The notes: a model not told the origin generated them from the sequence alone. A stretch of DNA of 64,000 bases from Promethearchaeota archaeon (GCA_030599585.1 JAUVNS010000006.1:64001-128000), one strand, 5' to 3'. Shown: positions 35,487 to 53,816, counted from the stretch's first letter. Translations and numbers: made by a program.

Positions 35487-35627
35487 TTACCTATTAAATG
35501 AACGAAAAGAAAAAAATAAGGCGATATAATTAATAGAGTTAACTTCGCCCTTATTCCTAATTAACCCCACCCTTAGCATTAGTAACCATATATTGGCTAC
35601 TTCATTTTCAGTACTTAGAGCCTTCAT
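35487..35627 (-). CDS. Candidate 46-aa small ORF, or a small RNA transcript
   Basis: MKALSTENEVANIWLLMLRVGLIRNKGEVNSINYIALFFSFRSFNR. AAGTGA lies before the ATG, and the upstream layout mirrors that of 51500..51697. Confidence 0.3.
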   Translation of the reverse strand: MKALSTENEVANIWLLMLRVGLIRNKGEVNSINYIALFFSFRSFNR

Positions 35628-35697
35628 ATTTTACTCACTTATTTTTTCCATATTCGTTAAGATGATGTTAATTGTAGTTTATATTTAGTTTTTAAAA

Positions 35698-35721
35698 ATG
35701 AACTTCAATTGGAGTCTTGGA
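35698..35721. promoter_or_regulatory. Palindromic operator-like element (ACTYCA-AT-TGGAGT), copy 1
   Basis: ATGAACTTCAATTGGAGTCTTGGA, 20/24 identical to 51769..51792. Confidence 0.55.
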
Positions 35722-36005
35722 TTAGAGCTGGATTGATTTATAATAATAAAATAGAGCGGTTCTTTTAGTTTAAAAAAAAATAACCCAAAATATACATTAA
35801 ATATCTTTTTTTGAATATCATCATTGAAATTTTTTAATGATTTACAACATTTTAGAAGAAATTTTTGCACTAATGAATAATCTTTTAAATAGGAATAAAA
35901 CAATATTTGTTTAATTAGAGATTAGTATTATTTGAAATCCTCGCAACATTTTTCCTTACAAACAATAGTTAGTATTGAGCTAAAAAATATTAAAAAAAAA
36001 TTAGT

Positions 36006-37088
36006 ATGAGTATCGAAAATTTATTACTCGTGTTATCTACCTCTATAACGGGGACATTAGTAGCAATTGGTGGTATGATTACATTCATTTATGCGTTCAG
36101 AAGAAAAAATCGGCTTATTTTCTTATTTTCCGCAATGTGGTTAATGTATGCTATTTTTTGGTTTGTAGATGCGGCAGCTCATTATTTTTACTCAATACCA
36201 CTAATGGCCTTAGCGATTATTCCACAACTGATAGGAATTCCGTGTATTATCATTTTTATCGAACTTAGCAGAAAAGAGCATGTTAGCCCAATTAAAATTT
36301 CAATACTTATGATTATCGAAGCCTTAGTTTTTATTATAACTTTTTATGTACCTGATAATTGGGAGATCATTCCTGGATATGGAATTCATAACAAAGGCAT
36401 ACTTCGGATAGCGCAGATAATCTTCATCTTTTACTTCATGATTTTTTATTTTTTATGGAGTTTTCATACTTGGCGTAAGGCTCCTGCGGGTTTAAAACGC
36501 TTAACAAGCTATTTACTATTTGGGAGCACTATTTTTTCAATTGTTACAGGGGTAATGTATGCAATTGGGACATTCATAAAAACATTTAATGCCATAGGGT
36601 TCTTCATAAATGGGATAGGAGCGTTCATCACTATTTTAGTTATCTTAAAAGATTCCAGAATTATATATATCTTACCTTTTAAGGCTTATCGAATTTTAGT
36701 GGTTGACACTATAGCAAGCGTAGCCCTATTTAAATACGATTGGGCGAAAGCAGGAGAAGTTGAGGAAAATATCTTTACCATGATGATCCAAGCTATTGGT
36801 AGTGTTCTAGACGACATTTTAAAAAAAGGTGATGTCCAAGAAATCCAAATGGATCGGGCAATCCTTCTTATTAAACACAATAAAGAAAATAATATAGCAT
36901 CGGTTTTGATAGCCTCAAAATTTTCAAAATCGCTGAGATATGGATTGAAAAGGTTTGACGAAGAATTTGTTGGAAGATTTCAAAAAACTTTAGAAAGTTC
37001 AAGAAAAGTTAGTGATTTCGTCGGGGGTTCAAAAATAGTTGAACATGTATTCGATTTTGTTCCAAGTTATAAAAGTGAAATTATATAA
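36006..37088 (+). CDS. 7-TM membrane protein with a C-terminal cytoplasmic longin-like domain
   Basis: Seven hydrophobic segments, then a soluble ~135-aa domain with a beta-beta-alpha-beta-beta-beta-alpha-alpha pattern (YRILVVD..LFKYDW..IFTMMIQAI..IQMDRAILLI..SVLIA..LKRF...F). Confidence 0.8.
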   Translation: MSIENLLLVLSTSITGTLVAIGGMITFIYAFRRKNRLIFLFSAMWLMYAIFWFVDAAAHYFYSIPLMALAIIPQLIGIPCIIIFIELSRKEHVSPIKISILMIIEALVFIITFYVPDNWEIIPGYGIHNKGILRIAQIIFIFYFMIFYFLWSFHTWRKAPAGLKRLTSYLLFGSTIFSIVTGVMYAIGTFIKTFNAIGFFINGIGAFITILVILKDSRIIYILPFKAYRILVVDTIASVALFKYDWAKAGEVEENIFTMMIQAIGSVLDDILKKGDVQEIQMDRAILLIKHNKENNIASVLIASKFSKSLRYGLKRFDEEFVGRFQKTLESSRKVSDFVGGSKIVEHVFDFVPSYKSEII

Positions 37089-37110
37089 TCAAAAACATAT
37101 TTGAAAAGAG

Positions 37111-51388: not shown

Positions 51389-51499
51389 AACGATGCTAGG
51401 TCGATTTTAGAAAACACGAAGCTTCATAAAACAATTTCCTAATGATTACTGAAAAATTGTTAAATTTAAAAAATAAGAAACAAAAAAAATTATTTATCT

Positions 51500-51697
51500 T
51501 TATATAGAAGATCTGGTGCCGTATTTTGCCCAGAGTTTTTGTTTTGCTTGTTGTAAAGTCATAACTCGCTCGTAATATTTTGAATTTTGATCCCCAATCA
51601 AGGCATCAAATTCTCTTTCATTTACTTTTTGGGCAGTTTTTTGTTCACTTTCTCCAATTTCAACTTCAAATGCTTGTTGTTCATATGCTTGAGTCAT
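51500..51697 (-). CDS. Small 65-aa hydrophilic protein, unknown function
   Basis: Stands alone in intergenic space, has AAGTGA before the ATG, an upstream TATA and a downstream T-tract; composition looks protein-like. Confidence 0.65.
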   Translation of the reverse strand: MTQAYEQQAFEVEIGESEQKTAQKVNEREFDALIGDQNSKYYERVMTLQQAKQKLWAKYGTRSSI

Positions 51698-51768
51698 TTT
51701 TTTTTCACTTTTATGTTTTTTTTATTTATAATTTTAATATTATAATATTGCATATATAGTTTAGTTTG

Positions 51769-51792
51769 ATGAAGTCCATGTGGAGTCTTGGA
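51769..51792. promoter_or_regulatory. Palindromic operator-like element (AGTCCA-TG-TGGAGT), copy 2
   Basis: ATGAAGTCCATGTGGAGTCTTGGA in the divergent promoter between the 65-aa ORF and the wHTH-TPR gene. Confidence 0.55.
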
Positions 51793-51869
51793 ATAACTAT
51801 GGATAACAAAGTATAAATAGATTTTAAGATTATACTATATCAAAGATCACTAAATAAGGAGTACTAAGT

Positions 51870-53816
51870 GTGGTTTCTGCATGCAATTATCCTCCTGAAG
51901 AGATTATTAAACCTATTTTTGGTAAGCCGAACTACGAATTCATTATATTGTGGATTTTGAACAATAATCAGGTATGTACTTGGGCAAACCTAAAAGAAAA
52001 AATTACGCATTCTACCTTATCGAACTACCTAACCCGGCTTAAAGATAGAGGGTACATTGAAAAAAGAGCATATAACCAGTATAAAATTACTTCTAGAGGT
52101 AGGGATAGGTTTTACGAGCTCTCCGAAGCCAAGCAAGAAAAGAGAAAGTTAAGTTACCCTCCCGACGCTATACTTAGAAGGAGGAATTATGACCATTGGG
52201 TTCTGTGGATGGTGTCTAACAACAATTATTGCAAGTGGTCAGATTTTTCTGAGCCTCCTCTTTCGATCAATCAATCTTCTTTATCTAAAAATCTCAATTC
52301 ATTAATAGATAAAGAATTTATAAAAAAAGAAGAAAAAGAATATAGAATAACTCGATTAGGGAAAACTGAATACTCAATTATGTTAAGACTATATGATTTA
52401 GATCGACAATCAATATTAGAGGAAGAAAGTAAACGACTTAAAGAAATAACGCAAAGCACCTCAAGTTTTTTTAACGAATATAAAATAAAAGATAGTGATA
52501 TTAAATTCCGGTTTCTAAATAATAAATTAAACTTACCATTTGAAAAGGTCGAATCCACTTTAGACAGTGAAGAGAATTATGATAAGGTGTTATTATATCT
52601 GTCTGTAAACCATCCAGACCGATTTCCGGATTACATTTCTCCAGAGGAGTTTTCTAAAAAGTACGACATCAATTTGGTTAAACTTAACTTTGTCATTCTT
52701 CGAATCGTTGAAGAAAATATCTTTCCAGTAAAATTTTTTAACTTAGATTTAGACGATGGGAAGATGTATTACTTTCATGTAAATGAAAGGCTGGAGCGGA
52801 TGCTTGATGTAATTGTTGAAGATCACATTACAAAATTCACCTACTTAAACAGTTTAGAGGAAGTAGAGGGAGTTTCCGCTCCGCTAACTATAGAAAGTAT
52901 TGTTAATACAATTTTAGAAGAAATAATTGATAATTTATTTGATCCAAGTTTAAAGCCAGCTTTAAGAACATTCCTTCCACATTACATTAACTGGTTGGCA
53001 TACAAACTTGAAAAAGAAAGAAAACTACTTGATACATTTGACAAATTGGAAGGATTAATCTGGAGAGAAATCCAGAATTTAAATATTAATGAAGAAAAGG
53101 AGCAAACTGATATGCAAGCTGAGCTGAATTATTATATAGATCCCGCGAAGAGTTATGAAGAAGCTTTAGAAGAAATTGATAAAGCGATTGATCGAAAACC
53201 TAAAGAAATTGATTTGTATTATATTAAAAGCAAGATTCTAATATATTATGATAAATACAATGACGCTTTAATCTTGCTAGATGGAATGGTAAAAGACTTT
53301 CCTAAAGATGAAAAATATCTCAAAATGAAAAAAGCATCTATTCTTAAAAGAATGAGAAATCTTGAGGGGGGTTTTGAAATTATAGAAGAATTAATTAAAA
53401 AATACCCTGAAGACAACGATCTTCTCAATTATAAAGCGCTTTGGTACCAATATTTAAATAAAAAGGATAATGCTTTAGAAATCATCCAAGATCTCATAGA
53501 GCGAGAACCAGATAATGGAATATATCACGATTCATATGGTGAAATTCTTCTAGCCTTTAATGAACATAAGTTAGCTATAGAAGAATTTCTAAAAGCAATA
53601 GAGCTGGATCCAAATAGTTGGTATGTTTATCAAACTTATGTTAAACTAGGAATTTGTTATCGAGAACTGGAAGAATATAAGTTAGCACTTGAGCATTTAA
53701 CGAAAGGCGAAGAGCTTATAGAACAATCTCCAAGCGATAATGATACAAAACAGATGTGGCACTCTTATGCTCAACCCTTTATCGAAGAGACTAAGGTGCT
53801 TCTTGAAGATTTTTAA
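51870..53816 (+). CDS. Tandem winged-helix + TPR protein, paralogue of 39019..40929
   Basis: NYPP.E.I.PIFGK, RNYDHW.LWMV.NN, HITKFTYLN, C-terminal TPRs. Confidence 0.8.
   Translation: MVSACNYPPEEIIKPIFGKPNYEFIILWILNNNQVCTWANLKEKITHSTLSNYLTRLKDRGYIEKRAYNQYKITSRGRDRFYELSEAKQEKRKLSYPPDAILRRRNYDHWVLWMVSNNNYCKWSDFSEPPLSINQSSLSKNLNSLIDKEFIKKEEKEYRITRLGKTEYSIMLRLYDLDRQSILEEESKRLKEITQSTSSFFNEYKIKDSDIKFRFLNNKLNLPFEKVESTLDSEENYDKVLLYLSVNHPDRFPDYISPEEFSKKYDINLVKLNFVILRIVEENIFPVKFFNLDLDDGKMYYFHVNERLERMLDVIVEDHITKFTYLNSLEEVEGVSAPLTIESIVNTILEEIIDNLFDPSLKPALRTFLPHYINWLAYKLEKERKLLDTFDKLEGLIWREIQNLNINEEKEQTDMQAELNYYIDPAKSYEEALEEIDKAIDRKPKEIDLYYIKSKILIYYDKYNDALILLDGMVKDFPKDEKYLKMKKASILKRMRNLEGGFEIIEELIKKYPEDNDLLNYKALWYQYLNKKDNALEIIQDLIEREPDNGIYHDSYGEILLAFNEHKLAIEEFLKAIELDPNSWYVYQTYVKLGICYRELEEYKLALEHLTKGEELIEQSPSDNDTKQMWHSYAQPFIEETKVLLEDF

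Follow-up and report, generated by a model that had tools for sequence, protein, structure and literature searches.

The DNA considered here is a 64,000-nucleotide stretch (the window) corresponding to C21:64001-128000 in the 4.85-Mb assembly (52 contigs, 32.6% G+C) of a Loki-type Asgard archaeon. It encodes two paralogous regulators, A and B, in which winged helix-turn-helix (wHTH) domains are combined with a tetratricopeptide repeat (TPR) domain, and it contains two full copies of a sequence element that we propose as a candidate operator of these proteins. The gene for regulator B (648 aa) occupies positions 51870-53816 on the plus strand. Regulator A (636 aa; 54% identical to B) is encoded at 39019-40929, likewise on the plus strand, with a Ras-like GTPase gene (38221-38772) as its divergent neighbour. 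Copy 2 of the element (51770-51804, minus strand) lies between the divergent promoters of regulator B and a 65-aa open reading frame (ORF; 51500-51697, minus strand). Copy 1 (35699-35733, minus strand) precedes a predicted small transcript of about 160 nt. A third copy is found outside the window at C47:3238-3272, within the cassette C47:2937-3272 (locus L078), where it precedes the gene for a conserved 78-aa protein, and the promoter of regulator A carries a half-site TTGGAGTTCCA (38921-38931, plus strand) 30 nt before its TATA box at 38952-38960. In this genome, the element is thus represented by three full copies and one half-site.

The original prediction had started from two 24-mers, 35698-35721 and 51769-51792, and its description of them is accurate. 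They are identical at 20 of 24 positions, and each includes an imperfect palindrome (35702-35715 and 51773-51786) with one mismatch to ACTCCANNTGGAGT. The distances of 75 and 76 nt to minus-strand ATG codons at 35627 and 51697 are correct, and in both cases the interval from the motif to the start codon contains AAACTAAA, a TATA-like stretch and AAGTGA. Likewise, TGGAGT (38922 and 51781) is located exactly 30 nt before GTATAAATA (38952 and 51811) in the promoters of both wHTH-TPR genes. On aligning the two sites along the minus strand, we found that the similar block comprises about 50 nt and is embedded in DNA that cannot be aligned. Its first part, 35 nt in length (35699-35733 and 51770-51804), exceeds the initially reported similarity and consists, in plus-strand orientation, of four boxes TGAA/TGGA/TGGA/TGGA at offsets 0, 11, 19 and 30 (spacing 11-8-11). 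These boxes start at 35699, 35710, 35718 and 35729 in copy 1 and at 51770, 51781, 51789 and 51800 in copy 2. Read on the promoter strand they appear as TCCA/TTCA, and the conserved core is formed by the two promoter-proximal boxes, AGACTCC-N4-RAMKTTCA.

Seven free bases downstream of the candidate operator follows the word AAACTAWATAT, which is located on the minus strand at both window sites, as AAACTAAATAT at 35681-35691 in the presumed promoter of the small transcript and as AAACTATATAT at 51752-51762 in that of the 65-aa ORF. As this word is invariant and lies 55-75 nt before a Shine-Dalgarno-like element and start codon, we infer that it represents the transcription factor B recognition element (BRE) and the TATA box. 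AAACTAAATAT is identical in all 12 related loci that were aligned. In the opposite direction, the TATA box GTATAAATA of regulator B (51811-51819, plus strand) is situated 30 nt downstream of the TGGAGT at 51781. Two further ideas on promoters were discarded. AAACTAWATAT does not qualify as a general promoter consensus, since its 48 matches in the genome compare with approximately 60 expected by hand estimate and the word is not enriched. A plus-strand promoter at site 1 driving the gene at 36006 was dropped because TTTATAAT at 35737 is not retained in orthologues.

The element is conserved beyond the two copies of the window: there is a third site in this genome, and 17 of the 42 genus genomes as well as a sister genus (g12) carry it. 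Searching the 42 genomes with the pattern AGACTCY-N18-22-AAACTAWAT yielded 28 places in 18 genomes, as compared to 11 for the reversed pattern that served as control, and one of these matches is the third site (C47:3222-3256). At 24 of the 28 places, the spacing is exactly N19 and the second box is present. These 24 accepted sites are distributed over 17 genomes with one to three sites per genome, and the gap between operator and promoter word is 7 nt in every one of them (N19 counted from the operator core). At positions outside the search pattern, 26 compiled sites (consensus AGACTCCAATnAAAGTTCA) contain 1.36 bits per position in the operator core but only 0.25 bits in the spacer and far flank. 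A 35-nt weight matrix derived from 29 sites, all from other genomes, placed the three sites of this genome on ranks 1 to 3 genome-wide with 39.4, 33.6 and 33.2 bits, followed by the next match at 26.9 bits; site 1 holds the first rank (39.4 bits) and site 2 at 51770-51804 the third (33.2 bits). In an order-wide sample of 121 genomes, the pattern was present in 14 of 35 genomes of this genus and in 11 of 35 of g12. Across 21 other genera it occurred in just three genomes, which is similar to the control.

Such similarity is not due to chance. The exact 12-mer TGGAGTCTTGGA occurs twice on both strands of the whole 4.85-Mb genome, solely at the two window sites, compared with about 0.3 expected occurrences (hand estimate from base composition). 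TGGAGT-N24-GTATAAATA has precisely two occurrences genome-wide, those in the promoters of A and B, with 0.03 expected. The palindrome alone is not significant: the window has three matches with at most two mismatches, a number equalled in 19 of 100 window shuffles, and the genome has 17 sites (34 matches over both strands) with at most one mismatch. The shared sequence is a real and conserved cis-regulatory cassette, and it is very likely functional.

Regulator B exceeds the Pfam cut-offs for HTH_45 (37.3 bits; cut-off 25.5), HTH_34 (31.0 bits; 27) and MarR (27.7 bits; 24.6) and shows clear matches to TPR families as well; it resembles MarR/PadR-like regulators in having a winged-helix domain above the family cut-off. 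The winged-helix matches of regulator A remain slightly under the Pfam cut-offs, and a profile search against the PDB returned weak wHTH matches only (best E 0.021). In an AlphaFold2 (AF2) model of regulator B (predicted local distance difference test score, pLDDT, 81.3), two winged helices at residues 22-85 and 107-174 are followed by a third winged-helix-like domain (209-303), long helices (307-403) and the TPR domain (412-647). The N-terminal part gave weak matches to MarR, PadR, HxlR and the two-domain SarS in a fold search. SarS from Staphylococcus aureus (PDB 1p4x), a two-domain SarA homologue on rank 2 for residues 1-205, also combines two winged-helix domains in one polypeptide, but the match is weak (E 1.4e-3, template modelling score TM 0.30/0.25) and SarS is a bacterial protein without a TPR domain. 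For the TPR domain, the 42 Foldseek matches listed (to rank 50) are generic TPRs, among them CTPR, Pex5, Tom70, MamA and Sti1. The tandem-wHTH/TPR regulators are an undescribed Asgard family; a full-text literature search found no paper on the regulators or on the operator.

The element had been put forward as a palindrome, ACTCCA-N2-TGGAGT. As a conserved feature, palindromy does not hold in this genus, since at least five of the six arm positions match in just 4 of 26 sites and 17 of the 26 have only three matches. Four boxes in the same sense describe the genus sites better. One could still argue that the operator is essentially the palindrome, bound by a symmetric dimer, and that the additional TGGA boxes are auxiliary. 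Both window sites indeed retain five of six arm positions, and in g12 the regulator-adjacent sites of genomes G058, G077 and G088 show a perfect ACTCCA-AT-TGGAGT (in G105 with the spacer GT), so that the inverted pair may be an ancestral or alternative form. On the other hand, orthologues of regulator B with 74-77% identity have lost the left arm and kept TGGAGTCTTGGA-N7-TGGAT. Moreover, the scheme of MarR/PadR-like regulators, in which a homodimer with a single wHTH domain per chain faces a palindromic operator, does not apply to a protein with two wHTH domains per chain, and such a tandem arrangement suits same-sense repeats. We regard an operator of essentially palindromic design as unlikely.

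Several comparisons connect the element with one part of the regulator family. In a tree of 66 homologues, the B clade (9 rows) and the A-like clade (11 rows) both belong to a 26-row group with a support of 99. The operator is found upstream of all nine B-clade genes, in one case with one mismatch. At five of these nine it is located about 100 nt from the TATA box of the regulator, yet directly beside the divergent AAACTAWATAT promoter, indicating that the element belongs primarily to the small-gene promoter. When a 23-nt matrix trained on 13 sites that adjoin no regulator gene was scored on the upstream regions of the 66 regulators, the top eight were all members of the B clade. Median scores were 14.5 for the B clade, 5.0 for the A-like clade and -2.0 for the others, and the matches always point away from the regulator. 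Among the 42 genomes of the genus, an A/B-type homologue is present in 17 and the motif in 17; both occur together in 16 and neither in 24. In g12, all four loci checked have the motif approximately 95-110 nt upstream of the best B homologue (61-64% identity) and in divergent orientation to it. As for regulator A, all seven A-clade rows have kept TGGAGT, in intergenic regions that hardly differ elsewhere. The site-1 and 78-aa sites are found in genomes that encode A-like regulators, and B is missing from some of these genomes. A and B probably share the site.

In other regulator clades, the corresponding position between two TATA boxes is occupied by repeated boxes of another sequence, for instance CGATAGTTYC twice and GGAAGTTC in the 37-row D group. 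The recognition helix of the first wHTH domain differs between clades as well, reading STLSNYL or STLSIYL in A/B, where the loop is three residues shorter, and GTLSRHL in D. The second recognition helix is nearly invariant across clades. Sequence comparison bears out that the motif tracks the A/B clade of wHTH-TPR genes by adjacency, matrix scores and co-occurrence, and we consider it probable that the element is the operator of this clade. D-clade loci (L014, L018, L100-L112 and, in this genome, C20 around 342150) additionally display a conserved inverted repeat, ATCATC-N4-5-GATGAT, in the leader of the divergent gene. This repeat is located downstream of the divergent TATA box and is separate from the box operator.

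A number of observations argue against such an assignment. The search pattern was built from the sites of this genome, and the fixed positions are hence circular. The site-1 operator is degenerate in four of eight orthologues, where it reads AGACTCTAATCAAAATTTA, and only 13 of the 26 sites contain box 1 and only 17 contain box 2. The fork of the B clade received a Shimodaira-Hasegawa-like approximate likelihood ratio (SH-aLRT) support of only 83%. The identity cut-off for A/B homologues (at least 54%) was picked after the data had been seen, and because related genomes are not independent, the co-occurrence counts overstate the support. Genomes with A-like regulators only still keep the motif, although A-like promoters score low for the full operator (median 5.0), so either paralogue may be the one that binds. 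Finally, two of the three sites in this genome adjoin no regulator gene.

The latter fact, together with about ten further cassettes with variant boxes in a genome with only five tandem-wHTH regulators, would fit a real operator that is read by something other than the wHTH-TPR proteins, with another transcription factor or a paralogue-specific TBP/TFB as candidates. In this case, the association with the regulators would reflect shared ancestry of the loci only. We regard this as unlikely, given that the box sequence varies with the regulator clade at a fixed position, that adjacency has been retained across genera at 61% protein identity and that element and regulator co-occur in 16 of 17 genomes in each direction.

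The interpretation that we favour, with a probability of about 0.6, is that the element constitutes an operator of approximately 35 bp with four boxes that is bound by the A/B clade and activates small genes, with feedback on the regulator. An A/B-clade protein would bind the four boxes that immediately precede the BRE/TATA of the small gene. Neighbouring boxes would be read by the two wHTH domains of one chain, so that a dimer would cover all four. Binding most likely activates the small-gene promoter, and the regulator probably feeds back on its own gene where its TATA box is 30 nt away.

EarA is reportedly one of the archaeal regulators that act from upstream of BRE/TATA. A further one is TrmBL1 from Pyrococcus furiosus, for which sites upstream of BRE/TATA activated two of three templates while downstream sites repressed all nine (PMC4706686). 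For TrmBL1 and SurR, the same source describes how a single site placed between two divergent promoters can act on both genes, and its discussion names Ptr2 and TFB-RF1 among the archaeal upstream-site regulators (PMC4706686). By the position logic outlined there for TrmBL1, activation of the small genes is favoured because the site is located upstream of their BRE/TATA. Feedback on the regulator is probable since the TATA box of its own gene, too, has the site 30 nt upstream of it. Like the TrmBL1 type, regulators A and B are winged-helix proteins with a predicted binding site immediately upstream of BRE/TATA, a position found in 24 of 24 accepted sites. Unlike TrmBL1, they comprise approximately 640 aa with two or three winged helices per chain plus a TPR domain, are associated with four same-sense boxes instead of one palindrome, and show no detectable sequence family relationship past the wHTH fold.

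What the putative operator controls differs from site to site. Three unrelated kinds of gene follow the cassette, and the similarity was therefore not carried along with a duplicated gene. At site 1, an alignment of eight orthologues predicts a transcript of about 160 nt (35501-35659, minus strand) that extends from a conserved TAACGAA to a U-run and holds a 46-codon frame (35487-35627). That this frame is a gene is doubtful, as it shows no coding signature. Differences are spread evenly over the codon positions (100/113/98), and nonsynonymous changes exceed synonymous ones in 15 of 15 pairs. The frame is intact in five orthologues (four ATG and one TTG start); in one, the start codon is lost (AAG) while the frame is open, and two have frame-breaking indels. 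The transcript folds more stably than shuffled sequences (z-score -2.71), into a terminal 5'-3' stem and an internal hairpin, but the consensus structure displays compensatory changes in just 3 of 46 pairs. In the predicted terminal stem of about 20 bp, the 5' end (AACGAAUA-GAAAAAAAUAAG) can pair with the complementary 3' end, some bases past the U-run (UUCGU) included. As its pairs are mostly invariant, this stem is neither supported nor refuted. The transcript matches no Rfam family; two chance-level hits lie nearby. Overall, we lean towards a small transcript that is non-coding rather than coding. A shorter micro-ORF may lie at the 3' end of the frame, its sequence (GEVNxINxxxLFFSxR) being open in eight of eight orthologues. 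In g12 (loci L121-L125), the transcript behind the operator contains a long near-perfect hairpin (GGAGAGCTCAATTGTT...AACAATTTGAGCTCTCC) preceded by GAGGGCGTAGTTAA, to which GGGCGAAGTTAAC in the site-1 transcript is related.

The 65-aa ORF at site 2, divergent from regulator B and preceded by the Shine-Dalgarno-like AAGTGA, is by sequence comparison a diverged member of a fast-evolving small-protein group. Its orthologues have kept the Shine-Dalgarno-like element and the first 13 or so codons, while the remainder diverges fast. Identity to the orthologues is 22-30%, and two close relatives differ by 2 synonymous versus 11 nonsynonymous codon changes. The product is hydrophilic (grand average of hydropathy, GRAVY, -1.02; top 15-aa hydrophobic window -0.43) and has no signal or membrane segment as judged by hydropathy. 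The third cassette is followed by the gene for the 78-aa protein with a strong ribosome-binding site, GGAGGGTGA, a conserved C-terminus (..YYIYEV) and a clear coding signature (275/101/614 differences by codon position). None of the 46-aa, 65-aa and 78-aa products gave a significant match in Pfam or NCBIfam, and the ESM Atlas offered no usable match to the 78-aa protein. A DegQ match on a 67-aa orthologue was set aside (17.5 bits; cut-off 22), and homology of the 46-aa and 65-aa products was rejected because tblastn found none. Small proteins with a conserved C-terminal motif are present in 24 of the 42 genus genomes; in G014, G013 and G057 members of this group are divergent from B-clade regulators.

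Several of the variant cassettes in the wider genome likewise precede a strong ribosome-binding site and a short ORF. The cassettes at C34:47597, C45:5097 and C22:127587 are followed by AAGGAGGT and short ORFs of 32 codons on C45 and about 23-24 codons, counted by eye, on C34 and C22. Another cassette at C8:76438-77076 has different boxes (GTCCATTCATAGT, TTCCATTCATACT) but the same AAACTAAATAT word, and downstream of it lie a gene for a 75-aa protein, apparently starting with TTG, that belongs to the group sharing the C-terminal motif, and a second small ORF of 81 aa.

The original prediction had compared the layout to RRNPP peptide-signalling loci such as Rgg/SHP; receptor/peptide cassettes of this kind, which also include PlcR/PapR and AimR/AimP, occur in Bacillota and in phages infecting them. 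This parallel applies to the layout only: a DNA-binding domain is fused to a TPR domain, and the regulator gene has as its divergent neighbour a small ORF with the presumed operator in its promoter. The DNA-binding part is of another type. Pfam assigns winged helices (HTH_45, HTH_34, MarR, PadR, HxlR, TrmB) and no HTH_3/XRE match, and the helix-strand-strand winged helices at 22-85 and 107-174 in the AF2 model agree with this assignment. In addition, the architecture is longer, the small products carry no export signal, which does not fit an exported pro-peptide, and the host is an archaeon. A functional equivalent would be a receptor/ligand loop: the regulator's TPR domain would bind the product of the operator-controlled small gene, which would switch the DNA binding of the regulator. 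The divergent arrangement of a DNA-binding TPR protein and a small ORF is in line with such a loop, as are the resemblance of the TPR domain to peptide-binding TPRs (Pex5, Tom70, Sti1) and the wide occurrence of the C-terminal-motif proteins, in three genomes next to B-clade regulators. However, XRE-type HTH domains are missing, the 65-aa product is hydrophilic with a poorly conserved body, and no RRNPP structure was among the 42 Foldseek matches listed (to rank 50). An AimR Pfam match was obtained solely on a 90-aa fragment (42826-43098) with an E-value of 0.0057, under the cut-off. We rate a loop of this kind as improbable.

To our knowledge, Asgard transcription factors are almost entirely uncharacterised, and we know of no inputs or outputs for the many Ras-like GTPases and TPR proteins in these genomes. 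The preferred reading, that of a four-box operator bound by the A/B clade, comes with defined box positions, spacing and consensus, three candidate targets in one genome and clade-specific variants. It hence provides a first testable target set for the wHTH-TPR family, and the hypothesis can be examined with recombinant protein, without culture of the organism. If the products of the small genes prove to be TPR-domain ligands, archaea would have their first example of a transcriptional switch of this kind that senses a peptide or protein. A much more speculative and rather unlikely extension is that Loki-type Asgard archaea run a family of self-contained receptor circuits, in which a regulator switches on genes for small or micro-proteins via a clade-specific four-box operator and its TPR domain senses either such a product or the state of a neighbouring Ras-like GTPase or TPR protein. 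If true, these circuits would correspond in archaea to the RRNPP switches that sense peptides, though with unrelated components, and would offer a first regulatory access to the small GTPases of Asgard archaea.

The similarity of the sites could finally be the remnant of a duplicated promoter without specific regulatory function, as the region that encodes the paralogues A and B abounds in gene fragments and in duplicated genes for TPR proteins and GTPases, but this is very improbable because a 35-nt block and an 11-nt promoter word persist between unalignable flanks, the spacer between them is free to vary (0.25 bits), and the block precedes three unrelated genes and recurs in 17 genomes and a second genus.

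Apart from A and B (about 640 aa each), the region contains five MalT-like TPR proteins, two Ras-family GTPases and two membrane proteins of 360 aa. The paralogous TPR proteins (570-650 aa) form an array at 40926-42644, 43884-45713, 45817-47658, 47744-49558 and 53920-55881, and each regulator has one of them convergent with it. The 90-aa ORF at 42826-43098 is approximately 80% identical to the C-terminus of regulator A, and a 37-aa stretch at about 51235-51345 shares 73% identity with the N-terminal end of the TPR protein encoded at 47744-49558. Both gene fragments are traces of recent duplication in the region. Between operator site 1 and the Ras-like GTPase gene lie the tandem paralogous 360-aa proteins (36006-37088 and 37111-38193; 55% identical), in each of which a hydrophobic, multi-pass N-terminal half is joined to a soluble C-terminal domain. 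These proteins gave nothing significant in Pfam or NCBIfam, and the two ORFs upstream of the third site (346 and 342 aa) show no similarity to them. No tRNAs were found, and at gathering thresholds the window has no Rfam match. The two Ras/Roc-family small GTPase genes (38221-38772 and 43154-43714) are 64% identical to each other and belong to a type that is abundant in the genome, with 57 high-scoring segment pairs from a single tblastn query. Other copies of their sub-group adjoin wHTH-TPR genes at C20:345934, C21:262439 and C9:167686.

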